From an uncultured Pseudomonadota bacterium (GTDB lineage: Bacteria; Pseudomonadota; Gammaproteobacteria; Steroidobacterales; Woeseiaceae): 64,000 nt of DNA. This document shows, piece after piece, positions 6,249 to 21,810 of the stretch. Under the pieces are notes generated by a model. That model made no database searches and was not told the DNA's origin. It saw nothing but the letters and a program-made list of their open reading frames with translations. Location of the stretch: the NCBI GenBank assembly GCA_963770585.1, contig CAVYQH010000004.1:48453-112452 (forward strand), read 5' to 3'. Numbering within the stretch: position 1 is the stretch's first letter; each line of letters starts with the position of its first letter. The position numbers and the translations under genes were made by a program.

Positions 6249-7373
6249 ATGAGGCGTTCGGTACTCGACAACCTGAAGAACATTTCAGGCTGGCGTACTT
6301 CTGACAAGCTTGTCGTTTTTGCCGTCGACGATTATTGCAATGTTCGTATCGACTCCAAGTCCGCGCGTGATCACATGGTCAAGGAGGGGCTGGACCTGAG
6401 CAACCGTTTCGATCGCTTCGATGCTTTCGAAACGCGGGAAGACCTGGAAGCGCTTTTCGAGGTACTTTCGTCGGTAGTAGACAGTGCGGGCAAGAACGCA
6501 AGCATTTCGTCGTATTCACTATGCGCAAACTTGTCGTTTAGGACGACGTCTATGAAGGAGGGTTGTTACAACTACGAAAAAGTGACGGACACATTCTGTC
6601 GTCTGGCCGCGCAGCAACCGCGCGCCTACGAGGGAACATGGGATTTGCTCGGCGAAGGCATCAAGCGAGGATTGATCAAGCCTCAATTCCACGGCCGAGA
6701 ACACTTGAATGTCGAACTTATAGAGCGAAAGTTGAGAGCTGGCGATAGAAACCTTGAGATGAACTTGGCGCATAACTCAGTGGCGGGAATCGGTGCTGAG
6801 GCGACCATGCCAGGCGTTGGCTACACTCACGCATTCGGACTGTCAAAATATAGCGAAATTGACCGCCACACCGATATCATTGCAGAAGGCGTAAAGTTGT
6901 TCCAAGAAGTATTTGGATTTGCCGCTCGTACTTTTGCTCCACCAGCACAGAAGCTGCATCCTAAGTTGTACGGTTTCGTCGAGTCACTGGGCATATTGTC
7001 TATCGACAAGCCTTTAAGCTGTGTTCGTACACTCGACCAGAACAAGTCGTTGAGAGAATTGAACAGGCTTGGCAAACAACACGGTCAGCACCATGTTTCA
7101 GTCGTCAGAAACGTGGTATTCGAGCCGACGTCCGATTCGTCGATTGACTCTGTGGCTTTGGCGCTCAATCAGATCCGTGCCGCGTTCCGCTGGAGAAAGC
7201 CGGCAATCATAAGCTCGCACAGAGTCAATTTCGCAGGACACATCGATCCGGGTAATCGCAAGCGTGGCTTGGCAGATCTCAGGCGCTTACTCGATGGGAT
7301 TACGTCACAATGGCCGGACGCGCGTTTCTTGACGGTCGATGAACTGGTCGCACAAATATGGTCGGTGCCATGA
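6249..7373 (+). CDS. polysaccharide deacetylase-like protein (intact paralog of 768-1911)
   Basis: 374-aa ORF. A DD motif (FAVDDY) and HGREHLNV resemble NodB-type metal-binding motifs 1 and 2. Function inferred only from these motifs and the glycan-locus context. Confidence 0.55.
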   Translation: MRRSVLDNLKNISGWRTSDKLVVFAVDDYCNVRIDSKSARDHMVKEGLDLSNRFDRFDAFETREDLEALFEVLSSVVDSAGKNASISSYSLCANLSFRTTSMKEGCYNYEKVTDTFCRLAAQQPRAYEGTWDLLGEGIKRGLIKPQFHGREHLNVELIERKLRAGDRNLEMNLAHNSVAGIGAEATMPGVGYTHAFGLSKYSEIDRHTDIIAEGVKLFQEVFGFAARTFAPPAQKLHPKLYGFVESLGILSIDKPLSCVRTLDQNKSLRELNRLGKQHGQHHVSVVRNVVFEPTSDSSIDSVALALNQIRAAFRWRKPAIISSHRVNFAGHIDPGNRKRGLADLRRLLDGITSQWPDARFLTVDELVAQIWSVP

Positions 7374-8377
7374 CTACGAAGCTTCGGCGGCTGGCGTATC
7401 TCGCCTACTACTTCAAACAGCTGGATTGGCCGCTGGTCGCGAAGTTCATGAACTATGTCGAAGATCAAACAGGGCGGTCATCGGCGAAGCAGTGGCGTTA
7501 CATATTGACTGATAGCCTGCGGTACAACATTTCGCCGCTCGAATACTTTCAGTTTCGATTCTTCGAGCAAACGGACGATGAGAAAGCTCAGTGGGCTGGT
7601 ACTGGCACAATGTACGAGTTCCAGCGAAAAGCCAATCCGGCTGGATCGCGAATGCTTCTACTCGATAAGCGTTTGTTTTTCAAGAAGTATCGGAAGTTTT
7701 TTCGGCACGAGCTCTATACGCTCGATGAACTACAATCGTCACACTCGCTTTTGGCTGACATACTTGCCGATAACGACAAACTTGTCTTCAAAGAGTCGAC
7801 GGGAAATTGCGGATCAGGCGTAGCAATTCGAAGCACAGGCACCATCTCGACCGGAGACATGTTCGAGTATATGAAAGATCACGAATTCGACCTGGTCGAA
7901 ACATATATTGAGCAGCATCCGAGTCTTATGAGCCTGTCGCCGTCGGCTGTAAATACCGTGCGCATCATCACCCAAATTAGGGAGTCTGGAGCATACGAAA
8001 TTCTCGGATGCCGCCTGCGGATTTCAGTCAATTCCGAAGTCGATAACCTTGCGGCCGGAAATTTGGCGGCACCGATTGACACGGAAACCGGCATTGTCGA
8101 CGGCCCAGGCGTCTATGCCGACATGACTCGCGAGCCCGAAAGTATTCATCCCACGTCAGGGCAAGCAATCGTTGGGTTTCAAGTGCCATTTTGGAGCGAT
8201 ACCCTGGCAATGGTCCGCGAGGCAAGCCTGCTGGATACTCAGAATCGTTCGATAGGTTGGGACATAGCTATCACCGAGGAAGGACCTGGGCTGATCGAAG
8301 GAAATCACGATTGGTGCAAGCTCGTCTGGCAATTGCCGGTGAACCGGGGCCTGAAGCATCTGCTCGATGCGGCCTAG
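7358..8377 (+). CDS. sugar-transfer-associated ATP-grasp family protein
   Basis: The N-terminal region (LAYLAYYFKQLDW.., ISPLEYFQFRFFEQTDDEKAQW) and C-terminal GWDIAITEEGPGLIEGNHDW are characteristic of the ATPgrasp_ST family as I recall it. Overlaps the upstream gene by 16 nt. Confidence 0.65.
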   Translation: MVGAMTTKLRRLAYLAYYFKQLDWPLVAKFMNYVEDQTGRSSAKQWRYILTDSLRYNISPLEYFQFRFFEQTDDEKAQWAGTGTMYEFQRKANPAGSRMLLLDKRLFFKKYRKFFRHELYTLDELQSSHSLLADILADNDKLVFKESTGNCGSGVAIRSTGTISTGDMFEYMKDHEFDLVETYIEQHPSLMSLSPSAVNTVRIITQIRESGAYEILGCRLRISVNSEVDNLAAGNLAAPIDTETGIVDGPGVYADMTREPESIHPTSGQAIVGFQVPFWSDTLAMVREASLLDTQNRSIGWDIAITEEGPGLIEGNHDWCKLVWQLPVNRGLKHLLDAA

Positions 8378-8380
8378 GGC

Positions 8381-9049
8381 TTGCTGATGAAGCCGGCAGT
8401 GTATCGCTCCCTCAAGCGCTTGCTGGACATCACCGTCTCTGCCGCAGCGCTCTTTTTCCTGGCGCCCTTGCTTGTCGTCCTGGCAGTCCTTGTCTGGTTC
8501 AAGCTCGGCAGCCCGACACTGTACCGGCAAACGCGACCCGGGTGTCGTGGCAAGCCGTTCGAGTTGATCAAGTTTCGCAGCATGCTCGATGCGTACGACG
8601 CGCAGGGAAACTCACTGCCGAACGCCGAACGAATGACGCCGTTCGGGAACTTCCTCAGGCATTCAAGCCTCGACGAGCTGCCGGAGTTCTGGAACATACT
8701 CAAGGGAAACATGAGCGTCGTCGGACCGCGGCCACTGCTGATGGAGTACCTGCCGCTGTACTCGGCGCACCAACGGCGCCGGCACGACGTGCCGCCAGGG
8801 CTGACGGGGTGGTGCCAGGTCAACGGCCGGAACGCATTGTCCTGGGACGAGAAATTCGATCTGGACGTTTGGTACGTCGACAATGCGTCCCTTGTCCTGG
8901 ATATCCGGATCATCCTGATGACTGTCTCCAAGGTGTTTCGCCGCGAAGGCATTACTCACGAAGGCGATGTTGCGATGCCCAGATTCCGCGGCTCCGAGGA
9001 CCAGACCAGTTCCGTTAACGCGAGCGAGGACAGGCATTGCGCATCCTGA
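8381..9049 (+). CDS. small (PglC/WbaP-C-type) phosphoglycosyl transferase, initiating sugar transferase
   Basis: Bacterial sugar-transferase hallmarks: KRLLDITVSAAALFFLAPLL (re-entrant helix), KPFELIKFRSM, DELPEFWNILKGNMSVVGPRPLL, GLTGWCQVNGRN, DLDVWYVDNASL. Confidence 0.9.
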   Translation: MLMKPAVYRSLKRLLDITVSAAALFFLAPLLVVLAVLVWFKLGSPTLYRQTRPGCRGKPFELIKFRSMLDAYDAQGNSLPNAERMTPFGNFLRHSSLDELPEFWNILKGNMSVVGPRPLLMEYLPLYSAHQRRRHDVPPGLTGWCQVNGRNALSWDEKFDLDVWYVDNASLVLDIRIILMTVSKVFRREGITHEGDVAMPRFRGSEDQTSSVNASEDRHCAS

Positions 9050-10113
9050 TTACGGGCGTCGGCGGTCCCACTCCGGCGAGTGTTGCGCTGTCCCTCAAGC
9101 GCTTCAGCCGATACAAGGACTGTTGGTTGCTTGGCATCGATGCGAATCCGCTGGGCACTGGTCTGTATCGCAAGAACCTTTTTGACAAGGCCGTCGTTGT
9201 GCCGGTCGCCGCTTCTGCCGATTACTGGCCCGCCATCAAACGCCTGGTCGGGGAGAACGACATTGACCTCGCGCTGGTGCAGCCGGAAGCGGAGGTCGTG
9301 GAATGGAGCCGGCGAGCCCTCGGCGCCGAGCTGCCGTGCAAGGCCTTGTTACCGGCGTACGAGCTGGCGAGCCTGCTCGTCGACAAAGCCGCGATGACCG
9401 GCGTCCTGCAGGAGACAGACCTGGCTCCGATCTCTGTTCGCCTGTCCCGGGACCTGGCCGGCGTGGCCGACGTCGAAAGTCAGTTGCCGTACCCCTTTTG
9501 GGTCCGGGCGTCGTCCGGCAGCAGCGGGCTTGGCTCATTGCTGGTCGTGGACCGCGACTCGTTGGCAAGCTGGGTGAAAATCAACAAGGGTGTGAAGTCC
9601 TTCTTGTGCAGCGAATACCTGCCCGGGAGAAACCTCGCCTGCAAGTTGCTCTATTTCGACGGGCGATTGCTTCGCTCCGCCTGCGCCGAGCGCATTCACT
9701 ACATCATGTCCAAGGTCGCGCCTTCCGGCGTGACCGGCAACACCGCGTTCGGGCGCTTTCTCAATGAGAACCGGCCTGTGGATGTCTCCGTCAAGGCCAT
9801 GGACCTCCTATTTGCACAGTGCGGCGCAGACAAGCATGGCTTCTTTACCGTAGACCTCAAGGAGGACGCTCTGGGCAAGCCGAAAATTACCGAAGTGAAT
9901 GTCCGCAACGTCGCCTTCAACGGCTGTTTCGCGCAGCTCGGCGCCAACTTTTCCGAGGACGTCGTCAGATTGTTGACGAACGATCCGGAGTTCGATGCCG
10001 TCTACCGGCAATACCAATTCGACGACGACTACGTTTTCATCCGTGATGTGGACGTCGAGCCCATCGTGTTGCGATGCTCGGAGTTGCTGCCGGGGAATGG
10101 CCAGTTTTCCTAG
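9037..10113 (+). CDS. ATP-grasp domain protein (carboxylate-amine ligase-like)
   Basis: MRILITGVGGP Rossmann-like start, then an ATP-grasp-like central part (PFWVRASSGSSGLG.., CSEYLPGRNLACK.., TEVNVRN). Overlaps the PGT gene by 13 nt. Confidence 0.65.
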   Translation: MRILITGVGGPTPASVALSLKRFSRYKDCWLLGIDANPLGTGLYRKNLFDKAVVVPVAASADYWPAIKRLVGENDIDLALVQPEAEVVEWSRRALGAELPCKALLPAYELASLLVDKAAMTGVLQETDLAPISVRLSRDLAGVADVESQLPYPFWVRASSGSSGLGSLLVVDRDSLASWVKINKGVKSFLCSEYLPGRNLACKLLYFDGRLLRSACAERIHYIMSKVAPSGVTGNTAFGRFLNENRPVDVSVKAMDLLFAQCGADKHGFFTVDLKEDALGKPKITEVNVRNVAFNGCFAQLGANFSEDVVRLLTNDPEFDAVYRQYQFDDDYVFIRDVDVEPIVLRCSELLPGNGQFS

Positions 10114-10151
10114 TTGTTTGATTTGCGTCTCGAGAGCTGGCGAAACATTCA

Positions 10152-10871
10152 ATGATTCGGAAGACCGGGCTAGCCATTATTCGGTTGATCCGCAGAAGGC
10201 CTCGGTTGTATCTGATTTGGTTTTATCTATACCGAAGTCGCAGAGGTGTACGCGTCGCCCGCCCAAGCGAATTCTCGAAACTGCATTTGGACGGCTACCC
10301 GAGGTCCGGGAACACATATTCAGCGAATTTGATCAAAAACTTGCTGCCAGGCATGCGCGAGCGCATGTTCGTTCACCACCTTCATGCTGTCGCCCCGCTG
10401 ATGTTGTCCTCAAAGTATGGCACACCGATCCTGGTCCTGATCAGGAACCCGAAAGACGCGATTGCTTCCAACTATCTCAAATACTTTGCACTTCGAAACA
10501 TCCGGTTGCCGAATGCTCTCGATGGAGAACTAGTATGGCATGAGATACAAAGCTACATTGACTTCTATCGGTACGTAAGGAGGCACAAGGCCAGGATTCA
10601 CATTGTCGAGTTTGACAAGATGATTTCCGAGCCAATCGCATTTCTCACGTTGGCTCTTCATTTACTGGGCGAAGATGGTCGTACGATAACCAAAGACGCG
10701 GTGGACCGAGTCGAATCGGATTTTCGGGCAGTGGAGAAGCGGAAAAATCCCTTGGGGAGCTCTTTGCCCAATACGGATCGAGCCCAAGCTACCGAAAGGG
10801 TTGCGAGCGCTCTGTATGGCTTTCCCGAGTTTGCGGAATGCGAGACTCTTTATAAAGAGCTAACTAGCTAG
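10152..10871 (+). CDS. sulfotransferase family protein (second, unrelated to 4166-5062)
   Basis: GYPRSGNTYS (PKSGTT-like 5'-PSB loop) and LIRNPKDAIAS (RNPxDxxxS-type 3'-PB motif). Visibly AT-richer than the flanking genes. Confidence 0.65.
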   Translation: MIRKTGLAIIRLIRRRPRLYLIWFYLYRSRRGVRVARPSEFSKLHLDGYPRSGNTYSANLIKNLLPGMRERMFVHHLHAVAPLMLSSKYGTPILVLIRNPKDAIASNYLKYFALRNIRLPNALDGELVWHEIQSYIDFYRYVRRHKARIHIVEFDKMISEPIAFLTLALHLLGEDGRTITKDAVDRVESDFRAVEKRKNPLGSSLPNTDRAQATERVASALYGFPEFAECETLYKELTS

Positions 10872-11031
10872 CGGGCTGATTTCCGACCTTGCTCAGCCCA
10901 GAACGGCTTCAACAAGATATGGTATTTTCTCTTGTGTCGGCACAGTGGAGTGCCTTACTCATGCGCGCTACCGGTACCAAGTATCGCTTGATTCGGGTTT
11001 GGCGGCGCATCGCTAGAGTGTTCGTTGACGC

Positions 11032-13022: not shown

Positions 13023-13103
13023 CGGTGTTTTGTTTTCCCTTCGTGAGCTGACTCATGAACACGACCGTCGAGTAAAGCTCCTCGGCGCGGGCGTTCTGAT
13101 CAA

Positions 13104-14276
13104 ATGCTAAACACACCTTTTGCCCCTTGGCCCAATTACACGGACGAAGAAGCGAGTGCCGTAACGAGGGTGCTCAAGTCGAACCGAGTCAACTACTGGA
13201 CCGGCGAAGAATGCCGGGCATTCGAGCGCGAGTTCGCGGAGTTTGGCGACACCTCATACGCCATTGCATTGTCGAATGGCACGGTGGCGCTTGAATTGGC
13301 GGTAAAAGCGCTAGGCATCGGCGAGGGTGACGAAGTCATTGTCACACCTCGGTCGTTCCTGGCATCGGCCTCTTGCGTGACCGAAACCGGCGCCGTGCCC
13401 GTATTCGTAGATGTCGATCCGGATTCCCAGAATATTACGGCCGCGACCATCGACGCAGCGATTGGCACCAGTACGCGAGCTATTCTTTGCGTGCATCATG
13501 CCGGTTGGCCCTGCGACATGAAGGGCATCCTGGAGTCGGCGCGCCAGCGTGGTCTTGCAGTGATCGAAGACTGCGCACAGGCACACGGCGCGAGATACCG
13601 CGGCCGGCCTGTCGGCTCCTTTGGCGACATTGGCGCATGGTCCTTTTGCCAGGACAAGATCATGACCACGGGTGGCGAAGGCGGCATGGTAACGACCAAT
13701 GATCGCGAACTGTGGTCCAAAATGTGGTCCTTGAAAGACCACGGCAAGAGTTACGACGCAGTTTATGAGCGCGAGCATCCACCGGGTTTTCGCTGGCTGC
13801 ATGAATCATTCGGGACCAATGGCCGTATGACTGAAATGCAGGCGGCCATCGGGCGCATCCAGCTCAAGCGCATGCCCGAATGGCACAAGCGACGCCTCGA
13901 GATAGCCAACACGATCTGGAACGCGGCGCGGGCACTACCCGGACTTCGTGTCCCGGAGATTCCGGAGCACATCGAGCACGCGGCGTACAAGTGTTACGTG
14001 TTCGTTCGCCCCGACGCGCTCAAGGCAGGCGGGGATCGCGATCGGATCATGGCCGAAATCAACGAACTCGGCGTGCCGTGCTACACGGGCAGCTGCCCGG
14101 AGGTCTATCTCGAAAAAGCCTTCGACGGTGGGTTCCGGCCGGACAAACGATTGCCGAATGCGCGACAGCTCGGCGAGACCAGCCTGATGTTTCTCTGCCA
14201 TCCCACCTTGACGGAAACCGAGGTTGCCAAGACCTGCCAGGTACTCGAATCCGTGATGCGCCGCGCGACGAAGTAG
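13104..14276 (+). CDS. DegT/DnrJ/EryC1/StrS (PglE-like) sugar aminotransferase
   Basis: NYWTGEECRAFEREFAEF, ALSNGTVALELA, IEDCAQAHGA, and the catalytic-lysine context SFCQDKIMTTGGEGGMV. Confidence 0.9.
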   Translation: MLNTPFAPWPNYTDEEASAVTRVLKSNRVNYWTGEECRAFEREFAEFGDTSYAIALSNGTVALELAVKALGIGEGDEVIVTPRSFLASASCVTETGAVPVFVDVDPDSQNITAATIDAAIGTSTRAILCVHHAGWPCDMKGILESARQRGLAVIEDCAQAHGARYRGRPVGSFGDIGAWSFCQDKIMTTGGEGGMVTTNDRELWSKMWSLKDHGKSYDAVYEREHPPGFRWLHESFGTNGRMTEMQAAIGRIQLKRMPEWHKRRLEIANTIWNAARALPGLRVPEIPEHIEHAAYKCYVFVRPDALKAGGDRDRIMAEINELGVPCYTGSCPEVYLEKAFDGGFRPDKRLPNARQLGETSLMFLCHPTLTETEVAKTCQVLESVMRRATK

Positions 14277-14305
14277 CCCGCCGTCAAGATGGCGTGCATT
14301 AGTGC

Positions 14306-15076
14306 ATGTACGAGCTAACGAAACTCGCCTCGCTGTTTCTCTATCCGCTCGGCAGTACTTTTCTTTTCCTCATCGCCGGTGCGGCACTTTGCATCAAGAA
14401 CCGACGTCGTTCAGGCACGGCGGTCGTCGCTTGCGCAATCGGCTGGCTCTGGATCTGGTCGATGCAGGCAACGGCCGATGCGCTGCTGGGATCATTCGAA
14501 CGTCGCTATCCGAACGTCCCAGTTGAGGTTGCGCCAAGCGCTGATGCCGCAGTCGTTCTTGGCGGAGCATTTGCTTTTGATCCAAGCTGGCCCTATCCGA
14601 CTGCCTCCGCCGCGGTCAACCGGTACTGGCATGGAGCACGCTTGTATCACGCCGGACGAGTGAAGGTGGTCGTCCTGACCGGCGGCGGCGATACGCAACA
14701 ATCCGAGAATGCAACGGAAGCGAAGGCGGGCGCTATTTTCATGCGAGACATTGGCGTACCGGAGGAACACATCCTGCTCGACAACGCCGCGCGGACCACG
14801 CAGGAGCATGTTGGTTACGTCGCCAAACTTCTCGAGAAAAACGGCCTGGAATCGTTCCTGCTGGTGACGTCGGCGGTTCACATGCGGCGCGCTGAAGCCG
14901 TGTTCCGTGCGGGCGGACTCCAGCCGATTCCCGTTGCAACGGATTTCCACGTCGAACCGGCCCCGGCATTTCGGCTGTGGCGCTTCGTGCCTAGCGTCAG
15001 CGGCCTGAAAGGAAGCACGGAAGCCGTACATGAATACATTGGCTACTGGTACTACCGATTGCGCGGCTGGATCTGA
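14306..15076 (+). CDS. YdcF/ElyC (DUF218) family envelope-biogenesis protein
   Basis: Two N-terminal TM helices. AVVLGG..., VVVLTGGG.., LVTSAVHMRRA are typical DUF218 motifs. Confidence 0.75.
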   Translation: MYELTKLASLFLYPLGSTFLFLIAGAALCIKNRRRSGTAVVACAIGWLWIWSMQATADALLGSFERRYPNVPVEVAPSADAAVVLGGAFAFDPSWPYPTASAAVNRYWHGARLYHAGRVKVVVLTGGGDTQQSENATEAKAGAIFMRDIGVPEEHILLDNAARTTQEHVGYVAKLLEKNGLESFLLVTSAVHMRRAEAVFRAGGLQPIPVATDFHVEPAPAFRLWRFVPSVSGLKGSTEAVHEYIGYWYYRLRGWI

Positions 15077-15499
15077 AGGCCTGCCAGTTATTCCGTCCTT
15101 TTCGAGAAACGCGGGGCGCTACAAAATGGCCCACTGCTGAACCAAAGCTTTGCTTAAGAAGACCAAACTGGAGTAGTTTCCCTGCGGGGATTGACGATGG
15201 TTTGAGCGCGACGGGCGCCGCCAATAAGAATAGGTCTGGGTTGGCCAATGGTCTGAGCGTTGGTGGCCAAGACAAGAAAAAGGGGAACGCCAAATAAAGC
15301 GTTTGAAACTCCGTGTGATTTTCAAATCACGCGCACAGCTTGCGTGCTATTCGCGCAGTCCGTGAGGTTCGCGGGTTCTCGCTTACCCGCCGTGCTGTCC
15401 AAGGCGACCGGTCCGCGTTCACCGGCCGGCACCAACGTTGTTTCATACGTCGATCGGGGGCCGACCTTGGGGGCGGAGAAGTTCCAATTGGGGCGTCGC

Positions 15500-15751
15500 A
15501 TGAACGAGATCCGTACGTCGAATAGCGGTGCGCAAGTGCCTGGGCCGGAGTTCGCAGCGTGGTGGCGTGTCGCCCTGCTGTTGCTGTCGGGTGCAGCGGT
15601 AATCATTTCATTGATACCATCCTTCAAAGAAGCCATTGAGCTGCCACATACGTACAGAATGCAACAGAACAAACGCTCATGGCTGCGGTTTCAATCGGTC
15701 GATGCTGGTGACCGCAAATTTACCTACGTCGATTTCGCTACCGCAGCGTAA
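15500..15751 (+). CDS. hypothetical small membrane protein (weak call)
   Basis: An internal ATG of ORF 15260-15751 gives an 83-aa product with one hydrophobic helix (WWRVALLLLSGAAVIISLI). No recognisable family. Confidence 0.2.
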   Translation: MNEIRTSNSGAQVPGPEFAAWWRVALLLLSGAAVIISLIPSFKEAIELPHTYRMQQNKRSWLRFQSVDAGDRKFTYVDFATAA

Positions 15752-17741
15752 CGTCCATGTAGTCCGCATACTGCTCAACATAAAATGGTCGAAAATGTTG
15801 TCTATCTCTGAAGATCAGCTTTCCAGTTGGCGTGGTGGCCCTACAACGTAGGCCCTCGCACAAGCGTAATGAAGGATCAATCGTCTCTGCACCACTACGT
15901 AGCGCCATAGCTTTCATTTCGTCGCGCAGATGCCGCTGCGCCGGATCGAATGTGACCATCAATTCTCCTGCCGCAGGCAAGTTCAATTGAATCTGAGTAA
16001 GTCGAGATCCAACCAAATAAGAATACGGTGCAAACTCACGGGCGTTGGGGTTATCCAATATCAAATACACTTTCCGATTCTTTGAGATCGAGCGCATGAA
16101 TGACTCCAATTCTTGCATTGCCAAAGTTGCACCCGCTCCTCCCTTGAACATTATCTTCCTTCCGTTGTCATCCAAATAGTAAAAGGAATTCGATGACGAC
16201 TCCTCCGTTGCGGAGAGGAAGTAGCGATTCCACATACCACCAATTACAACGACTTCGACCTCCGCTTTGTCTAGATACGTGCGTGCTTCTGCCATTGCGT
16301 TGGAGCAACGATTTGTTTTGATATCCAATACATTAGGTATAGGTGGACAATTTGTATGTGTTATGAAGATAGCTGTGTTTTGGTCAGGATCTTCTTCCAG
16401 TAAGCGAACTACTCTCGTGGCGTACTGCTGAATATGCGAATCGCCAAGAAACAACGTTGTCGCTTCCCTTCCGATTGCGGTATACGCATTTGTGGTTCCA
16501 TTTGACACCGGCTTGAGACCACCTGGGTAATCCCAATCGTGCGCCGCCGCGACTACCCCTTCGACAGAGTGCGAGTTGAGCCTCGGAGCCACGCCTCCTT
16601 TCCATACAATTAGACCGGCGATGAACAAGACAAACATCGAGCATGCAAGAACTGAGATATCCGCTTTGCTATAGCTTTTCCTAAATCTCTTCTCCACTAG
16701 AATGTATGTACCAGATGCAAGCAATATGCTCACTACTATCAGAGAAAATCGAATAGTTCTGTCTGGCAAACCACGTTCGAGAATTCGGGCATACGCCAGG
16801 AGTGGCCAGTGCCACAAGTATAGTGGATAGCTTATTAGACCTATCCAGACCATTATGGGGTGACTCAGAAAGAATTGATTTAGCCATCCTGTCGGGTGTC
16901 CTGCAATTACCAACGCAGAACCAATTGTTGGCACTAGTGCCCACCAGCCTGGGAAGGGTGTGTTCTTATTGAACCAGAGGACGCTACAGACTATTAGCAC
17001 AAGTCCAATTGGTGCGAATAGGGGTAAAAATCTATTGCTGCAATGAGGTTTATCGCACCGGAAGAGATAGACGTAGGCCAACAGGCCACCCACCATCAAC
17101 TCCCAAACTCGGCTAAATGGAGAAAAGAACAAGGCTGCCGGATCGCGACCAATCCAGTAAATGTTGATTACAAATGACAGGGCTGCAACGAGAAAAGCAA
17201 TAAGTAAGAAACTCAGCTTTCTCCGCCACACAATGCCAAGCAAAAGAGGCCACAGGATGTAGAATTGCTCTTCAATACCGAGCGACCACAAGTGAAGCAG
17301 AGGCTTAATTTCTGCGGCTCTATCGAAGTACCCGGCCTCGCTCCACAAGACGAAATTGGAGACAAAGCCGGCTCCTCCCGCGACATGCTTGCCTAACTGA
17401 GAATGCTCATCTGGAAAAAGGACATACCACCCAAATGCCATGCTGGATAACAACACCAGCAATAGAGCGGGGAAAATCCTCTTGATTCGTCTGGCGTAGA
17501 ACTCAACATAGCTAAATCTATTGTTGTCAAGATTGCCCAAAATTATGGTCGAAATCAGAAAGCCTGAAATGACGAAGAAAACGTCAACCCCGATGAATCC
17601 GCCCGGCACTATTCCAGCAAAGTAGTGATACCCAACTACGGAGAGCACAGCTATTGCGCGTAGTCCATCAATATCTGGCCGATATGTTGGGTGCGCTAAA
17701 TTGTACTTCTTTGATTTCATGGTTGTTTCAATCGACCACAA
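15738..17741 (-). CDS. acyltransferase family 3 (OafA/YrhL-type) with C-terminal SGNH-like domain
   Basis: RPDIDGLRAIAVLSVVGYH start and about ten TM helices. The C-terminal soluble domain has LFLGDSH. Length 667 aa, AT-richer segment. Confidence 0.85.
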   Translation of the reverse strand: MWSIETTMKSKKYNLAHPTYRPDIDGLRAIAVLSVVGYHYFAGIVPGGFIGVDVFFVISGFLISTIILGNLDNNRFSYVEFYARRIKRIFPALLLVLLSSMAFGWYVLFPDEHSQLGKHVAGGAGFVSNFVLWSEAGYFDRAAEIKPLLHLWSLGIEEQFYILWPLLLGIVWRRKLSFLLIAFLVAALSFVINIYWIGRDPAALFFSPFSRVWELMVGGLLAYVYLFRCDKPHCSNRFLPLFAPIGLVLIVCSVLWFNKNTPFPGWWALVPTIGSALVIAGHPTGWLNQFFLSHPIMVWIGLISYPLYLWHWPLLAYARILERGLPDRTIRFSLIVVSILLASGTYILVEKRFRKSYSKADISVLACSMFVLFIAGLIVWKGGVAPRLNSHSVEGVVAAAHDWDYPGGLKPVSNGTTNAYTAIGREATTLFLGDSHIQQYATRVVRLLEEDPDQNTAIFITHTNCPPIPNVLDIKTNRCSNAMAEARTYLDKAEVEVVVIGGMWNRYFLSATEESSSNSFYYLDDNGRKIMFKGGAGATLAMQELESFMRSISKNRKVYLILDNPNAREFAPYSYLVGSRLTQIQLNLPAAGELMVTFDPAQRHLRDEMKAMALRSGAETIDPSLRLCEGLRCRATTPTGKLIFRDRQHFRPFYVEQYADYMDVTLR

Positions 17742-18124
17742 CGGACGGCGACCAAAGAGTCCTAGACCAAATGAGGCAAATGGATTCGACCTGAAAAGGT
17801 TTCGACTACGGGACTACGGCGCAGTTTCCGACGTCAATATCGTACTGATATGTTTACCGAACCTTTTCTCAAAAGCTTGTTATTTAAGTCGACAACCGCG
17901 GACGCTGATCTCACGGCGAGTGGGAGTTTCTTGAAGGGCAGTTTACCGGTGATACACAGGCCTTTGCGTTTACTTGGTTGGCATCGATGAGGCTGCTCGA
18001 TGAACTACAACTTCGAACGTACGCCCCAGGGCAAAATGTGCTTCGGCAGGGCGTCGACGGTAACCCTCGAGGATGGCAGTCGCCTCCGCAGAACCGGTAA
18101 TTGTCAGACGGCGTCCTTCTGCAT

Positions 18125-18892
18125 CTAAGGCCGACGCTTGCGTAAGAGCATAGAACCTTTTGATCCCAGCTTTGGCAAGTACATTGATGACAACACCTCA
18201 ACTCGCTTCCAAACCGGCAGCGCAAACCCAGGGAGAGCCGAGATAAAGTGACTGCTTAGGAGAAAGTACCCGTGGCTGGCCAGAACTTCGCAGTTACCTT
18301 CGATTGCCACCGTGGCAAGCTCATTGAATGAGAAGAGCGGAGGGTGTCCTGGCCTCGGTAGGGGAAAACCTGACGTTGCGAAATCAATAAGAACATAGCC
18401 TCCCGGTGCTACTACCCGCATTTTCTCTTTGACAACGTCAATAGCAGCCTGTTTTGTGTCCAACCTGTTAAGAACGCGGGTAGAAAAAACAAAGTCGAAC
18501 GCACCATCTTCGAACCCTGTGTCCTGGCCGCTTCGCACGACAAAAGATATGTTGTCGAGGCTTCTCGCCTTCGACTTGCCCTCCTCCAGCATGTATTCTG
18601 AGGGATCGAGAGCCGTGACATTGAAACCTTGCTTCGCGAGCTCGATAGCGAATCGAGCTGTGCCGGCGCCGATTTCAAGAATTCGTGCACCGGGCGCCAA
18701 ATAACTGACTGCGCGCTCGAGCTGCCGATCCTCAATCCAATGTATCAATCGACCTTGTGGAGTGGTGAAGCGGGCACGGTCGTAATTCCTTGCCTGAACT
18801 TCCGAATAGGCTGTCAACAAACCATCCTCATGTTCTACAGATCTCGTATTTAAAGTGGATCTCGATTCCGACGCCGGGCATGATGCTGTCAT
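18125..18892 (-). CDS. class I SAM-dependent methyltransferase
   Basis: Motif I ILEIGAGTARFAIELAKQG, post-I VTALDPSEYML, motif II FDFVFSTRVLNRL. Confidence 0.85.
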   Translation of the reverse strand: MTASCPASESRSTLNTRSVEHEDGLLTAYSEVQARNYDRARFTTPQGRLIHWIEDRQLERAVSYLAPGARILEIGAGTARFAIELAKQGFNVTALDPSEYMLEEGKSKARSLDNISFVVRSGQDTGFEDGAFDFVFSTRVLNRLDTKQAAIDVVKEKMRVVAPGGYVLIDFATSGFPLPRPGHPPLFSFNELATVAIEGNCEVLASHGYFLLSSHFISALPGFALPVWKRVEVLSSMYLPKLGSKGSMLLRKRRP

Positions 18893-19620
18893 TCGGTATG
18901 AGCTGCGCGTCGATTCCGAACAGCAGCAACAACGTCCTGAAGGTCAGGGTGTTCAATTGCGTCGAGCTGAGCCAGGGATATTTCACCGTCGTGTCCTTTC
19001 CGATACAGCTCATCGCGATATGCTTGCCACTTCCAATGCCTGGCAGAGATTCGAGCTGGTATTGCCGCTACTCCCGCAACTTTTGCCAAAGCCAATCGAT
19101 GTTTTCCAGTCATGAAGAGGAATTCGCCGTTAGCCCCAATGCTCAAACAGAACGGGTCCGTTGCGCGGTTCGGCCATGTAGGGATCGCAAACCCCTTAGT
19201 GGACAATGTCTCGAAAAGCGACCGATAACGTAATAGATCCGGCGGTTTCTGATGCGGTAGCGGCGATTCGGTGACAAAGAGTTTCCTGAACTGATCGACA
19301 AGCCTGCTGTGCTTCGGAGGGAGGCGCATCATACGCTCCCACTCCTTCCTTTGGATCAATCCACTGAATCGATATAGTTTCCGCCGGACGAATTTCGAAG
19401 ATTCAATTGAGTATTCGATAGTGTGGGGTGGCACGTAAACCGTCGCGATTGGGCAAGCCGGTTTGGCATATGCAAAGTAATGCACAACAAATAGTAGACA
19501 GGACTGGACATCGAAGACGGTAAGAACCAGCCACTTTAGTGCGGCGTTCAAGACACTATATATCTCACGAAGGTGGAGACTCGGGAGTCGGCGTCCCTGT
19601 TGTTGCTTAACGCGACTCAT
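18889..19620 (-). CDS. hypothetical protein with ParB/Srx-like motif
   Basis: Its stop overlaps the methyltransferase start (4-nt overlap). GEFLFMTGKHRLALAKVAGVAAIPARI resembles the ParB N-terminal/sulfiredoxin-fold GxHRxxAA..G...IP signature. Start placed at ATG 19620, because the longer ORF (to 19824) would overlap the capD-like start. Confidence 0.45.
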   Translation of the reverse strand: MSRVKQQQGRRLPSLHLREIYSVLNAALKWLVLTVFDVQSCLLFVVHYFAYAKPACPIATVYVPPHTIEYSIESSKFVRRKLYRFSGLIQRKEWERMMRLPPKHSRLVDQFRKLFVTESPLPHQKPPDLLRYRSLFETLSTKGFAIPTWPNRATDPFCLSIGANGEFLFMTGKHRLALAKVAGVAAIPARISARHWKWQAYRDELYRKGHDGEISLAQLDAIEHPDLQDVVAAVRNRRAAHTE

Positions 19621-19800
19621 ACATCCATGTTCCAGTCTAACCCACCCGGTCAATTTAGCGACGAGAGTTCTGCCTCCCGGCCCGCCATTTGTGCTAAGTT
19701 TCTGGTCCGTACGGATAACAAAAACAAGTGCCGATACCGGTATGACAAAAACAACAAATGGTAGCTTACATCCGCCGGCGAGAAGCCAAGGGAGGCCAGG

Positions 19801-21810
19801 ATGATGGACCATCCAGGTCAGCAAGATCCCCGATTTTCAAGGGAGCGAGCGCTCCGTATCTCGCTGATCCAGCTTCCGCGCCTTACCAAGCGGCTCATCA
19901 TGTTGGGATCCGACATTGCCGGTGTCCTGGGCTGCTTCGCGCTTTGCCTCTGGCTGAGCCTGATCATTCCCGTGTCGGTCGGCGACCTGGCGCTGCTCGC
20001 AACCGCGACACTCCTCGTGGCGCTGGCCCTGGCCCGGTATCTCGGCTTCTATCATTCCATCGTCCGCTACCTCGGCATCGGGCTGCTCACGGCGGCCGCG
20101 CGGGTAGCTGTCGGCGCTGCGATTGCACTGGCGCTATTTGCCTGGATGTCGGGCATGACCACGCAGCCAGGCCGCTTGGCCGTGGTCTACGCCGCGTATT
20201 GCGGCCTGTACCTCGTCAGCAGCCGCTACCTCGCCCAGTTCTTCCTGGTGCGGCGCTCGTTGGGCAAGAGCAAGGTCATAATCTACGGTGCCGGCGAGGC
20301 CGGTGCGCGGGTAGTACAGGCCATGCAGGGCGCCGCTTCGTACCGCCCGATTGCCTTCATCGACGACAAGCCGGCACTGCAGGGCATCCAGATCGACGGC
20401 TTGACGGTCTATCCGCGTTCCAGTTTGCCGTTCTTGATTAAAAAGTATGACGTCGCGCGCGTGCTGCTCGCGATCCCGAGCGCGTCGCGGCGGGAACGCC
20501 AGGACATCATCGCGGAACTCGAGCAATTGTCGGTGCATGTGCAGACCGTGCCGGATTTCGTCGACCTGATCACCGGCAAAGCACGCGTCGATGACATTCG
20601 CGACGTGGATGTCGAAGACCTGCTGAGCCGGCCGCCGGTGGCACCGAACGAGCATCTCATGGCAGCCACGTTGCTGAACAAGTCGGTCCTCGTGACCGGC
20701 GCCGGCGGTTCCATCGGCTCCGAGCTGTGCCGGCAGATCGTTCGGGTTGGTCCAAGGCGGCTCGTGCTGTTCGAGATTTCCGAGCCGGCGCTGTACGTAA
20801 TCGACCGGGATCTCCGCGCTCTGGCGGCCAAGATCGGCATGCAGTGCGAGATCGTGCCGCTGCTCGGGTCGGTGCAGGACGAACGTCGCGTCAACGAAGT
20901 GATGAGCAGTTTCCATATCGACACGGTGTATCACGCGGCGGCCTACAAGCACGTGCCCATCGTGGAGCAGAACATCATCGAGGGCGCCTGCAACAACGTG
21001 CTGGGCACGGTGACCACCGCGGCAGCGGCCATCGCCAACCGCGTCAAGACTTTTGTCCTGGTATCCACCGACAAGGCCGTCAGCCCCACGAACGTCATGG
21101 GCGCCACGAAACGCTTTGCCGAACAGATCCTGCAGTCGATGCAAAAGCCCTCGCACTCCACCTGCTTCTCCATGGTGCGCTTCGGCAACGTTCTGGAATC
21201 GTCCGGCTCGGTCGTGCCCCTGTTCCGCGAACAGATTCGGCACGGTGGCCCGGTCACGGTGACCCACCCGGAAATCATTCGCTATTTCATGACCATCCCC
21301 GAGGCGGCGCAGCTCGTCATCCAGGCCGGCGCCATGGCCCGCGGCGGCGACGTCTTCGTGCTGGACATGGGCGAGCCTGTGAAGATCAAGGACCTCGCCG
21401 CGCGCATGATCAATCTGACGGGACTCACGGTGCGCAACGCGGACAACCCGGACGGTGACATCGAGATCCAGTTCACGGGGCTCAGGCCCGCCGAAAAGCT
21501 CTACGAGGAGTTGCTGATCGGCGAGAACGTATCCGGCACCCGGCACCCGCGCATCATGCGGGCCGAAGAGGACTTCATACCGGAGGAGGCTTTAAAGCCC
21601 CTGCTCGGCGACCTCGTGCTGGCCGCCCACCAGCTCGATCGCGAACGCATGCGCAATATCCTGCGCGACACTGTGAAGGAATATCGGCCGACCAACGACA
21701 TCGGCGACCTGATCTGGGGCCAGCGCCGGACGCAGAAGGCGGGCGCCGAAGACAATGTCGTGGAACTCAAGACCGTCGCCAGGCCCGACCGGGGTTCTTC
21801 CGTAGCTTAG
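19801..21810 (+). CDS. membrane-bound UDP-HexNAc 4,6-dehydratase (CapD/WbpM/PglF family)
   Basis: Four N-terminal TM helices, IIYGAGEAG and VTGAGGSIGSEL Rossmann motifs, HAAAYKHVPIVE, VLVSTDKAV. 669 aa. Confidence 0.9.
   Translation: MMDHPGQQDPRFSRERALRISLIQLPRLTKRLIMLGSDIAGVLGCFALCLWLSLIIPVSVGDLALLATATLLVALALARYLGFYHSIVRYLGIGLLTAAARVAVGAAIALALFAWMSGMTTQPGRLAVVYAAYCGLYLVSSRYLAQFFLVRRSLGKSKVIIYGAGEAGARVVQAMQGAASYRPIAFIDDKPALQGIQIDGLTVYPRSSLPFLIKKYDVARVLLAIPSASRRERQDIIAELEQLSVHVQTVPDFVDLITGKARVDDIRDVDVEDLLSRPPVAPNEHLMAATLLNKSVLVTGAGGSIGSELCRQIVRVGPRRLVLFEISEPALYVIDRDLRALAAKIGMQCEIVPLLGSVQDERRVNEVMSSFHIDTVYHAAAYKHVPIVEQNIIEGACNNVLGTVTTAAAAIANRVKTFVLVSTDKAVSPTNVMGATKRFAEQILQSMQKPSHSTCFSMVRFGNVLESSGSVVPLFREQIRHGGPVTVTHPEIIRYFMTIPEAAQLVIQAGAMARGGDVFVLDMGEPVKIKDLAARMINLTGLTVRNADNPDGDIEIQFTGLRPAEKLYEELLIGENVSGTRHPRIMRAEEDFIPEEALKPLLGDLVLAAHQLDRERMRNILRDTVKEYRPTNDIGDLIWGQRRTQKAGAEDNVVELKTVARPDRGSSVA

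Follow-up and report, generated by a model that had tools for sequence, protein, structure and literature searches.

The diNAcBac pathway of Campylobacter and Psychrobacter employs a PglF dehydratase, the aminotransferase PglE or Pcryo_0638, the left-handed β-helix (LbH) N-acetyltransferase PglD or Pcryo_0637, and the phosphoglycosyl transferase (PGT) PglC (PMC8040287). Acylation of a 4-amino sugar by an ATP-grasp enzyme is also already established, for Pyl in Bacillus cereus and PglB2 in Neisseria. According to PMC11626204 and PMC8987622, the UDP-yelosamine pathway of B. cereus ATCC 14579 (Hwang et al., J Biol Chem 2014) consists of the dehydratase Pdeg, the aminotransferase Pat and the ATP-grasp ligase Pyl, which ligates 2-oxoglutarate to UDP-4-amino-FucNAc; an adjacent gene encodes a small PGT (Q814Z7) whose predicted substrate is the acylated sugar. 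In N. meningitidis, PglB2 is described in PMC11130364 (citing Chamot-Rooke 2007) as a bifunctional ATP-grasp/PGT fusion that makes a glyceramido-acetamido-trideoxyhexose (GATDH). A different target is used by the C-terminal TupA-like ATP-grasp amidoligase of C. jejuni Cj1438, which activates the C6 carboxylate of a sugar on the growing chain (PMC11800379).

The window analyzed here is the whole 64,000-nucleotide stretch, which lies on contig C4 of a 4.0-Mb draft assembly (90.65% complete). An earlier note had placed in it genes for a dehydratase, an aminotransferase, a PGT and two ATP-grasp proteins, and all five were found at those positions and in those families (Table 1). The two ligases are referred to below as ATPgrasp_ST, after the 'sugar-transfer associated ATP-grasp' family, and AG2. 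What the earlier note missed is that they form half of a four-gene cassette, in which the gene at 6249-7373, left unconnected there, is the first.

Table 1. Features of the locus, in window coordinates
Feature	Position	Strand	Basis
CE4/GH57-clan-like putative de-N-acetylase, 374 aa, soluble (cassette gene 1)	6249..7373	+	weak family matches, conserved residues
ATPgrasp_ST ligase	7358..8377	+	PF14397, E 6.8e-43
PglC-type small monotopic PGT	8381..9049	+	Bac_transf, E 1.6e-61
AG2, second ATP-grasp ligase, three-domain carboxylate-amine-ligase fold	9037..10113	+	PRK12767-type, structure model
DegT aminotransferase, Pcryo_0638-like	13104..14276	+	DegT, E 2.6e-96
DUF218/ElyC-like envelope factor	14306..15076	+	DUF218, E 4.8e-29; ElyC model, E 4.8e-33, below cut-off
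AT3+SGNH O-acyltransferase	15738-17741	-	O-acyl type, not N-acetyl type
PglF/WbpM-type membrane-anchored UDP-GlcNAc 4,6-dehydratase	19801..21810	+	Polysacc_synt_2, E 1e-120; CoA_binding_3

The dehydratase, aminotransferase and PGT of the diNAcBac pathway are thus all present, whereas its PglD/Pcryo_0637-type N-acetyltransferase is missing from the locus. As in B. cereus, the predicted route leads from UDP-GlcNAc through a 4-keto to a 4-amino sugar, the genes lie beside a small monotopic PGT, and we propose that the 4-amine is capped by a carboxylate-amine ligase of the ATP-grasp type and not by an acetyl-CoA transferase. However, B. cereus has a single ligase where this locus has two of different families together with a CE4-like gene, its Pat forms FucNAc4N whereas this locus encodes a gluco-forming aminotransferase of the Pcryo_0638 type, and the present host is Gram-negative and carries the genes in an island rich in sulfotransferases. 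The resemblance to PglB2 lies in an ATP-grasp module that replaces the acetyltransferase module of a pgl-type pathway and is physically tied to a PglC-type transferase; in PglB2 the two are fused, whereas here they are encoded by separate overlapping genes and accompanied by the second ligase and the CE4-like gene. AG2 and ATPgrasp_ST are likened to Pyl and PglB2 by described function and gene context. With Cj1438 the locus shares an ATP-grasp ligase encoded among polysaccharide genes (capsule genes in C. jejuni) and, as proposed here, an amide on a sugar. However, in Cj1438 the ligase forms one protein with a glycosyltransferase, whereas the cassette is linked to an initiating transferase, and the TupA-type model has no match in ATPgrasp_ST.

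The product of the three pgl-like enzymes, which they also transfer, is almost certainly a derivative of UDP-2-acetamido-4-amino-2,4,6-trideoxy-D-glucose, as homology to Pcryo_0638, PglF and PglC indicates; this supports the earlier claim that the trio yields and transfers a UDP-4-amino sugar. The product is assigned on the basis of the aminotransferase, which is 63.5% identical (556 bits) to Pcryo_0638 (PDB 7l7x), an enzyme whose substrate and product were established by kinetics and crystallography (PMC8040287), and which retains its key residues. Equivalents of T60, D156, S180, Q183, K185 and N239 are all present, including the catalytic lysine and the glutamine contacting the 2-acetamido group, and Y229 is replaced by phenylalanine. 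The dehydratase aligns with C. jejuni PglF (5bju) at 296 bits. The PGT, which could alternatively start at ATG 8387, shares 46.5% identity with C. concisus PglC (8g1n) across 200 columns (218 bits), and its translation shows a single N-terminal hydrophobic helix and the LDELP and GPRP motifs.

The statement that the window encodes no N-acetyltransferase stood, as neither a PglD-type nor a GNAT protein was found on the contig. A scan of the whole assembly with the PglD-family model TIGR03570 returned nothing above the cut-off, and on C4 it matched nothing but PglF itself, in its Rossmann-like N-domain. GNAT domains (PF00583) were matched 19 times in the genome and never on C4. The search of the 20 kb that precede the window likewise found no acetyltransferase, PglD-like or other. 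The only NeuD-like LbH protein of the genome (196 aa, contig C8) reaches 89 bits, where the cut-off is 160.8. Its gene adjoins a second DegT gene in a cluster with a UDP-GlcNAc 3-dehydrogenase-like oxidoreductase and a 2-epimerase, which by its gene content is a predicted WbpB/E/D/I-type 3-amino pathway.

Both ligases give confident ATP-grasp models with AlphaFold and Foldseek, the structural check that the earlier note had proposed. The start of ATPgrasp_ST is more likely ATG 7370 than 7358, since this codon and the stop codon of the gene before it overlap as ATGA and the copy in the protein collection has 335 residues. Its model (pLDDT 83.3) has a helical N-domain in residues 1-110 ahead of the ATP-grasp core, and Foldseek aligns it with Ddl, RimK and PurK at a TM of about 0.4. 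The family comprises 1918 homolog clusters, and its invariant residues include K141, D298, E310 and N312. AG2 starts at TTG 9037, seven nucleotides after a GAGGA. A Pfam search at 1e-3 gave no match for this protein, and it matches the NCBIfam model PRK12767 ('carbamoyl phosphate synthase-like') at E 1.8e-12 and 46.8 bits, far under the cut-off of 218. Its model (pLDDT 88.7, pTM 0.88) retrieves 2pn1, PurK, the L-amino-acid ligases RizA and BacD, PylC and Ddl in Foldseek with E-values of 1e-14 to 1e-17, and the family profile matches 2pn1 at E 2.5e-4. The AG2 family (149 clusters of 50% identity at E<=1e-30) includes homologs in Bacteroidota that are 50-59% identical, and among its invariants are the loop G7-x-G9-G10-P-T-P, K203, D273, E286, N288 and R290. 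The metal-binding positions, E-x-N and an aspartate, are invariant in both families.

For the first cassette protein, Pfam and NCBIfam searches with the window sequence gave no match. However, of 35 homologs, six touch Glyco_hydro_57, four DUF2334 and one Polysacc_deac_1, all with weak E-values; we take these three families to belong to a single Pfam clan. The invariant or near-invariant residues D27-D28, H148/H152 (in HGREH), R287 and H324 can be read as CE4 motifs 1, 2, 3 and 5. The protein has no transmembrane segment and is 42% identical to its homolog in the Flavobacterium pallidum cassette.

The cassette has the conserved order CE4-like gene, ATPgrasp_ST or a CapK-like adenylating enzyme, PglC-like PGT, and AG2. 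Its members are coupled by the ATGA overlap, the 13-nt overlap of the PGT and AG2 genes, and the GAGGA. The PGT gene had been described as overlapped on both sides by ATP-grasp genes, which is true downstream; upstream, the ATPgrasp_ST stop codon (8375-8377) is separated from it by a 3-nt gap. Used as a marker, AG2 occurs in 201 representative species, mostly Bacteroidota. We surveyed 80 species-level loci, of which 66 could be counted upstream of AG2 and 65 downstream. Within 5 kb upstream there is a CE4-like homolog in 49 loci and a PGT of the PglC-like subfamily in 60. The position between them is filled in 64 of the 66 loci, by ATPgrasp_ST (54) or a CapK-like protein (10), and this exchange of non-homologous proteins argues that its job is carboxylate activation. 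A DegT gene follows within 5 kb downstream in 53 of the 65 loci, and the DUF218/ElyC homolog lies within or adjoins the cassette in L010, L014 and 15 further loci. In the nearest gammaproteobacterial contigs the block from the CE4-like gene to DegT is co-inherited at 57-80% identity. However, the DegT beside the cassette in most Bacteroidota loci shares only about 30% identity with that of the window and is accompanied by a second, divergent PGT, so part of the co-occurrence with DegT and PglF may reflect ordinary locus architecture.

Some variants carry a PIG-L de-N-acetylase (18 loci) or a formyltransferase (15 loci), inserted after the PGT gene and before AG2. These additional enzymes free or acylate amines, and they suggest that the N-acyl groups of the priming diamino sugar are remodelled. 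A true PglD-family gene lies directly between AG2 and DegT in 9 of the 65 loci (170-196 bits in the eight that were scored, against the cut-off of 160.8), and one distant relative, P0309, is PglD fused to an AG2-like domain. The ligases are therefore not simply substitutes for PglD. Where a PglD-family gene is present, its product may well acetylate the 4-amine, which would leave the ligases another job.

The island has a GC content of about 50%, against 65% in the host, and AG2 was not found in any of the 40 relatives of the genome that were searched, from which we infer that the cassette came by horizontal transfer. The PglF gene has a host-like GC content and homologs in 14 of 25 relatives (37-68% identity), and is probably a resident enzyme with which the acquired cassette works.

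We propose that the locus directs synthesis of the sugar that primes a polysaccharide, probably a sulfated one. By close homology, the aminotransferase would form UDP-2-acetamido-4-amino-2,4,6-trideoxy-D-glucose, and the PGT would transfer a bacillosamine-type sugar phosphate to undecaprenyl phosphate. As no acetyl-CoA-dependent N-acetyltransferase is available, the 4-amine would be acylated by an ATP-grasp ligase, which would convert a carboxylic or amino acid to an acyl phosphate for attack by the sugar amine. AG2 is the better candidate for this step, given its complete three-domain fold, its glycine-rich N-terminal loop like that of ATP-grasp enzymes with nucleotide substrates, and its near-constant adjacency to the PGT. 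ATPgrasp_ST, or the CapK-like protein elsewhere, could add a second acyl or aminoacyl group, either extending the first residue or acylating a second amine that the CE4-like enzyme, encoded just upstream, has exposed. On this view the four genes, which are translationally coupled, would form a cassette for N-acyl tailoring of the first sugar and would act with the resident PglF. We hold this explanation as a whole with about even confidence. The earlier idea of an amide on the 4-amine is partly supported: at this locus the ATP-grasp proteins are the obvious candidates and PglD is lacking, but replacement of PglD is not the general logic of the cassette, given the loci that have PglD.

One alternative, already raised in the earlier note, is amidation of a uronate: the C6 carboxylate of a HexNAc uronic acid in the repeat unit would be activated by one or both ligases and linked to an amine such as an amino acid or ethanolamine, leaving the 4-amine of the priming sugar free or otherwise modified. 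The island opens at C4:27215-29614 with two genes, one for a TviB-like UDP-GlcNAc C6 dehydrogenase that scores 577 bits (equivalog cut-off 592) and one for a WbpP-like epimerase; these make a GalNAcA or GlcNAcA residue likely, and the TupA-like domain of Cj1438 is a precedent, on glucuronate. The distant AG2 relatives P0366 and P0357 appear from their sequences to be fused to HAD-type phosphatases, and in L012 an ATP-grasp_3 gene is followed by a HAD gene; both arrangements recall the C. jejuni gene order of ligase then phosphatase. However, a TviB-like gene occurs within 10 kb of AG2 in none of 85 related loci, in contrast to the PGT and DegT; the dehydrogenase gene lies 27 kb from the cassette in this genome; and ATPgrasp_ST has no match to the TupA-type model even with the threshold relaxed to E<=1. 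Nor would a uronate at another place in the repeat account for the tight linkage to a single subfamily of initiating transferases, and we consider uronate amidation unlikely.

The ligases could also act indirectly, making an activated acyl donor (a CoA or carrier thioester) or a small acyl-amino acid or dipeptide for attachment by another enzyme, or the amine could stay free in a zwitterionic AATGal-like motif while the ligases decorate something else. The AG2 relative P0246 (44.6% identical) carries a C-terminal tail with LGFDSLELAEL that can be read as an acyl-carrier domain, which would allow a thioester-forming role over direct amide formation, and P0309 and the PglD-family genes beside AG2 fit a ligase that feeds an acyltransferase. 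Free 4-amino sugars are well known from Bacteroides PSA and Shigella sonnei. However, the window has neither an LbH or GNAT acyltransferase nor a carrier-protein gene to take the donor, the PGT is closest to the diNAcBac-specific PglC and not of an obviously different class, and both characterised precedents, Pyl and PglB2, are direct carboxylate-amine ligases; we give this explanation little credence. It is more improbable still that the cassette is intact in an island whose polysaccharide pathway no longer functions and yields no product. The DUF4838 gene is split across two frames (11032-12372 and 12152-12862), a CE4-like paralog at 768-1911 is broken, and a group 1 glycosyltransferase (Glycos_transf_1) is reduced to a 134-aa fragment at 235-639; the foreign GC content and the absence of AG2 from relatives would also fit. 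However, all seven core genes are full length with conserved catalytic motifs, the four cassette genes keep their coupling signals, the breaks may stem from misassembly in a nine-contig draft, and broken accessory genes would leave priming-sugar synthesis unaffected.

The preferred reading remains acylation of the priming sugar by an ATP-grasp ligase. The four-gene cassette is widespread and most likely attaches other acids to the amino groups of the priming sugar.

The dehydratase of the window, in which CoA_binding_3 accompanies Polysacc_synt_2, is of the membrane-anchored UDP-GlcNAc 4,6-dehydratase type found in pgl-type pathways, and its dehydratase domain matches C. jejuni PglF (PDB 5bju) with 296 bits. 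Over its entire length the aminotransferase shares 63.5% identity with Pcryo_0638 of Psychrobacter cryohalolentis (PDB 7l7x; 556 bits). The aldimine in Pcryo_0638 is contacted by T60, D156, S180, K185, N239 and Q183, the last of which binds the 2-acetamido group (PMC8040287). The equivalents of all six, including the catalytic lysine, are kept in the window enzyme, while Y229 is replaced by phenylalanine, and we infer that this enzyme makes UDP-2-acetamido-4-amino-2,4,6-trideoxyglucose. The small phosphoglycosyl transferase (PGT) is 46.5% identical to C. concisus PglC (PDB 8g1n), a diNAcBac-1-phosphate transferase, and its translation contains a DE dyad and a PRP motif. By close homology, the dehydratase and the aminotransferase would together produce the 4-amino sugar and the PglC-like enzyme would start a lipid-linked glycan. 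Because the enzymes were compared with solved structures, the pathway is much firmer than family names alone would make it. All genes named in the earlier note were recovered in an ORF listing and in Pfam and NCBIfam scans of the window.

Positions of the features discussed. Positions without a prefix are those of the window; G000 is the source genome, C4 and C8 are two of its contigs, L009 is the 20 kb upstream of the window (C4:28453-48452), and other L numbers are related loci.
Feature	Position	Strand	Match or remark
CE4-like gene	6249-7373	+	first cassette gene, directly 5' of ATPgrasp_ST
ATPgrasp_ST, first ligase	7358-8377	+	PF14397, E 6.8e-43
Small Bac_transf phosphoglycosyl transferase	8381-9049	+	E 1.6e-61
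AG2, second ATP-grasp ligase	9037-10113	+	no Pfam match at 1e-3; weak match to NCBIfam PRK12767 'carbamoyl phosphate synthase-like' models, E 1.8e-12
DegT aminotransferase	13104-14276	+	E 2.6e-96
PglF/WbpM-type dehydratase, 669 aa	19801-21810	+	Polysacc_synt_2, E 1e-120
TviB-like UDP-GlcNAc C6 dehydrogenase	G000:C4:27215-28495		island start; 577 bits, slightly below the equivalog cut-off of 592
WbpP/TviC-like epimerase	L009 155-1162		island start
Five clear sulfotransferases	L009 6739-7704, 11580-12446, 17452-18174; window 4166-5062, 10152-10871		three Pfam families
Possible sixth sulfotransferase	L009 16392-17447		E 0.021
Broken CE4-like paralog	768-1911 (ORFs 768-1121, 1093-1911)		34-36% identical to 6249-7373
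Split DUF4838 gene	11032-12372, 12152-12862		two overlapping frames
Glycosyltransferase-like fragment, 134 aa	235-639		Glycos_transf_1 and Glyco_trans_1_4 (group 1 models)
AT3+SGNH O-acyltransferase, class I methyltransferase, unannotated 311-aa protein with hydrophobic segments	15738-19824	-	
Second glycan locus	G000:C8:154800-163600 (L095 2832-11564)	-	
Formyltransferase and PIG-L inserts, Flavobacterium	L021 8299-9297, 9266-9967		

Compared with the diNAcBac pathway of Campylobacter and Psychrobacter, the PglF, aminotransferase and PglC types are all present, but the PglD-type left-handed beta-helix (LbH) N-acetyltransferase is missing. The earlier note had also recognised no N-acetyltransferase, and as far as the assembly shows this is borne out by several searches. 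No protein of the genome scores above the cut-off of TIGR03570 (the NeuD/PglB/VioB family), in an assembly that is 90.65% complete and may have lost a gene in a gap. On contig C4 the model matches solely the Rossmann-like N-domain of PglF itself. The genome encodes 19 GNATs of PF00583, none of them on C4. The 20 kb upstream of the window, where a PglD-like gene would have told against the note, contain no acetyltransferase.

A genome-wide check for PglD- or WbpD-like genes yielded no PglD above the cut-off and one WbpD-type LbH candidate on contig C8, a protein of 196 aa that is the best in the genome at 89 bits (cut-off 160.8). Its gene adjoins a second DegT gene of the genome in another glycan locus, which also encodes a polysaccharide deacetylase, a UDP-GlcNAc 2-epimerase, a UDP-GlcNAc 3-dehydrogenase-like oxidoreductase, an SDR epimerase/dehydratase, an amine oxidase-like flavoprotein and a GT2 glycosyltransferase. 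Judged by its gene content, this locus is a WbpB/E/D/I-type 2,3-diacetamido-sugar pathway with its own logic. The presence of a PglD-like gene 5' of the window or at another place in the genome was rejected, the LbH protein belonging to the WbpB/E/D/I-type set.

We scanned for AG2, the second ATP-grasp ligase of the window, in one genome per species. It occurs in at least 201 representative species, mostly Bacteroidota, with 50-59% identity to the window protein. Among cultured organisms, the cassette is carried by Flavobacterium pallidum (L014), F. lotistagni (L044), F. salilacus (L049), Polaribacter sp. IC073 (L032), Flavihumibacter cheonanensis (L081) and Carboxylicivirga fragile (L087). 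AG2 was found in none of 24 congeneric species and in none of 16 genomes of the same order, and PglF-like genes are common in these same relatives. We therefore conclude that the genes around AG2 were imported as a cassette next to a resident dehydratase; vertical inheritance was rejected on the absence of AG2 from the 40 relatives. The neighbourhoods of PglF differ among the relatives G005, G008, G014 and G031 (loci L099-L102). In one of them the PglF-like gene abuts a PGT 56% identical to that of the window, and in another it stands after TviB/WbpP-like genes. The dehydratase thus behaves like a resident gene that serves changing partner pathways. A classical PglD version at the same site in close relatives found no support, as the four PglF neighbourhoods inspected hold neither the cassette nor PglD and thus give no picture of a replacement at one fixed site.

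The window proteins were mapped onto 85 related loci, and counts were limited to those with enough flanking sequence. A second carboxylate-activating enzyme is encoded upstream of AG2 in 64 of 66 loci, either ATPgrasp_ST (54) or a CapK-like adenylating enzyme (10). A PGT of the window's PglC-like subfamily likewise lies upstream in 60 of the 66, and a homolog of the CE4-like gene lies within 5 kb upstream of AG2 in 49. Within 5 kb downstream of AG2 we found DegT in 53 and PglF in 35 of 65 loci. From the recurrence of the upstream partners, the unit consists of four genes encoding the CE4-like protein, the first ligase, the PglC-like PGT and the second ligase. That either of two non-homologous enzymes holds the position of the first ligase implies that this position serves to activate a carboxylate. 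Many Bacteroidota loci have a second, far more divergent PGT 5' of DegT and PglF. It scores 69 bits against PglC, compared with 142 bits for the cassette PGT in the same Bacteroidota locus, so that of the two it is the cassette PGT that resembles PglC.

Judged by their junctions, the four cassette genes are translationally coupled in the window. These consist of an ATGA overlap (7370-7373), a gap of 3 nt (8378-8380) and a 13-nt overlap in which AG2 starts at 9037, ahead of the PGT stop codon at 9047-9049, the two remaining separate ORFs. The AG2 start codon is TTG and is preceded at 7 nt by GAGGA. Of the overlaps with ATP-grasp genes that the earlier note placed on both sides of the PGT, the downstream one with AG2 is thus found, but the upstream gene, ATPgrasp_ST, is separated from the PGT by the 3-nt gap.

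A plain sequence search of both ATP-grasp proteins against the PDB gave matches at noise level only. Structure prediction, which the earlier note had proposed, modelled both as ATP-grasps. The AG2 model (pLDDT 88.7) is a full three-domain ATP-grasp. A fold search of the PDB returned 691 matches at E<=0.001, of which the best 50 are all ATP-grasp enzymes. The closest structures include 2pn1, a 'carbamoylphosphate synthase-like' protein that is itself uncharacterised and that the AG2 family profile also reaches by sequence, as well as PurK, the L-amino-acid ligases RizA, BacD and BL00235, PylC and Ddl. An N-terminal G-x-G-G-P-T-P loop, K203, D273, E286, N288 and R290 are invariant across 33 AG2 homologs and, by analogy, would be metal- and ATP-binding positions. 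ATPgrasp_ST matches PF14397 with 147.3 bits (gathering threshold 31.4). In its model (pLDDT 83.3) an all-helical N-domain of about 110 residues takes the place of the usual pre-ATP-grasp domain and is followed by an ATP-grasp core, in which K141, D298, E310 and N312 are invariant. Both ligases look catalytically competent from these predictions. Each has more than 1000 homolog clusters at 90% identity, and the ATPgrasp_ST homologs are single-domain proteins in all of the matches listed.

The product of the first cassette gene is soluble and has no Pfam match of its own. Its homologs show weak matches to GH57, DUF2334 and Polysacc_deac_1, which we take to be members of one Pfam clan. A DD pair, an H-x3-H motif (HGREH) and a late histidine (SSHRVN) are conserved; we read these as CE4 deacetylase motifs, with which their spacing fits. 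The CE4-like profile has no match in the PDB. The broken paralog of this gene is split near its N-terminal quarter, and many Bacteroidota loci likewise hold two CE4-like paralogs.

The related loci contain several variants of the cassette. A PIG-L family de-N-acetylase is found in the cassette neighbourhood in 18 loci and a sugar-type formyltransferase in 15, in most cases with both genes between the cassette PGT and AG2. In Flavobacterium such inserts occur in L021, L022, L027, L030, L035, L039, L042-L044, L047 and others. In L055 the interval from the cassette PGT to ATPgrasp_ST is occupied by a GNAT and a PIG-L gene. These inserts seem to represent modular versions of a cassette for N-acyl tailoring. 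The PIG-L and formyltransferase inserts, the exchange of ATPgrasp_ST for a CapK-like enzyme and the PglC-like nature of the cassette PGT together point to N-acyl remodelling.

In nine of 65 loci AG2 is directly followed by an LbH gene and this in turn by DegT. The eight that were scanned all exceed the TIGR03570 cut-off, with 170-196 bits. In addition, a distant AG2 relative (P0309, 28% identity) carries a PglD-like N-terminal half fused to the ATP-grasp, and this half matches the PglD-family proteins of cassette loci by BLAST (E 6e-24). These loci and the fusion argue against a simple replacement of PglD by an ATP-grasp enzyme. That notion agrees with the lack of PglD in this genome, but it does not extend to the loci where a PglD-family gene stands beside AG2. 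In PglD-bearing organisms the ligase and the acetyltransferase would be partners rather than alternatives. Other fusions to an AG2-like domain were read from motifs only, namely hydrolase-like N-domains in P0338 and P0363, a ComB-like phosphatase in P0390 and HAD-type phosphatases in P0366 and P0357. The CE4-like HMM does not match the N-domain of P0338. P0249, whose residues 6-355 match AG2 by BLAST, appears to have a second ATP-grasp besides this half.

The cassette lies in an island of about 35 kb with about 50% GC, in a genome of 4.0 Mb with about 65% GC. The upstream part of the island encodes Wzi, Wza, Wzc, an ABC transporter, a NusG-like protein, FkbM methyltransferases and at least three of the five clear sulfotransferases. 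The number of the latter suggests a heavily sulfated bacterial polysaccharide. The TviB-like and WbpP/TviC-like genes at the island start make a GalNAcA or GlcNAcA residue likely. Three divergent genes on the minus strand between the cassette and PglF may encode further decoration of the glycan. The DUF4838 gene downstream of AG2 is split by a frameshift or an assembly error. A 46% identical gene is also found 3' of AG2 in a Saprospiraceae locus (L037), and this family may thus be loosely associated with the cassette. The glycosyltransferase-like fragment near the start of the window is probably the remnant of such a gene.

Since no acetyltransferase is available, we favour an ATP-grasp ligase as the enzyme that caps the 4-amine. 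This ligase, for which AG2 is the favoured candidate, would activate a carboxylic or amino acid as an acyl phosphate and then attach it. The second ligase would extend the added residue, or acylate another amine that the CE4-like enzyme would have uncovered, and the tailoring could have either the UDP-sugar or the lipid-linked sugar as its substrate. Taken as a whole, this mechanism has in our estimate about an even chance of being correct. A bolder version, in which the four genes edit the N-acyl groups of the priming sugar, is considerably less likely and remains speculative. Here the CE4-like enzyme would remove the 2-N-acetyl group of a bacillosamine-type sugar, or the PglD-installed acetyl group where PglD is present, and the two ligases would then add two acyl or aminoacyl groups, different from each other and neither of them acetyl. 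Without any part played by ribosomes or NRPS, this would yield a diamino sugar with two N-acyl groups, or else a short arm resembling a peptide. The ATPgrasp_ST/CapK-like position and the optional PIG-L and formyltransferase inserts would be swappable specificity modules. If this version were true, the modules would diversify surface antigens across Bacteroidota, with occasional transfer into Proteobacteria.

An ATP-grasp ligase could instead amidate a uronate, as Cj1438C provides a precedent for (PMC11800379) and as the likely HexNAc uronate of the polymer would allow. However, none of 85 related loci has a TviB-like dehydrogenase within 10 kb of AG2, so that travelling of the cassette with a UDP-HexNAc dehydrogenase has no support, and uronate amidation would not account for the close association with a single PGT subfamily. 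ATPgrasp_ST does not match the TupA-type model, PF14397 being the only Pfam family listed at E<=1, and no TupA-type family is found for AG2 in Pfam at E<=10. We regard uronate amidation as unlikely, somewhat more so than the editing of N-acyl groups. An indirect role, with the ligases forming thioesters or a small acyl-amino acid, or a 4-amine that simply stays free, seems about as improbable as uronate amidation. The carrier-protein-like tail that motifs suggest for the AG2 relative P0246 and the PglD fusion P0309 fit such a role, but neither an acyltransferase nor a carrier protein that could take up a donor of this kind is encoded in the window. Least probable by some distance is a decaying island: the split DUF4838 gene, the broken CE4-like paralog and the glycosyltransferase fragment would agree with decay, yet the core genes are intact.

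Two characterised systems provide precedents. B. cereus Pyl (Bc5272) ligates 2-oxoglutarate to UDP-4-amino-FucNAc (PMC11626204, PMC8987622) and adjoins a small PGT whose cluster is predicted to use the Pyl product (PMC11626204). PglB2 of Neisseria is a fusion of ATP-grasp and PGT that makes a glyceramido sugar instead of diNAcBac (PMC11130364). AG2 resembles Pyl in having genes for a 4-aminotransferase and a small PGT as its neighbours, a likeness of superfamily and gene order. Unlike the single polypeptide of Neisseria, the ATP-grasp and the PGT of the window are separate ORFs. In contrast to both precedents, the cassette has two ligases of different families, a CE4-like gene and modular variants. 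Among the papers covered by a full-text literature search, there was no studied member of the AG2, ATPgrasp_ST or CE4-like families. The principle is already published with Pyl and PglB2, and the locus extends a known theme without adding a new principle.

In the assembly of a bacterial surface glycan, all later steps build on the acceptor that the first sugar provides, and this sugar also contributes strongly to antigenicity. Small PGTs whose donor is not known are a recognised gap, and assays of SmPGT specificity are limited by the available UDP-sugars (PMC11626204). The cassette holds three uncharacterised protein families, the AG2 ATP-grasps, ATPgrasp_ST and the CE4-like proteins. Their characterisation would add new ATP-dependent amide-forming enzymes for nucleotide sugars, and once the products of the cassette are defined, the donor sugar of an entire PGT subfamily would be known.
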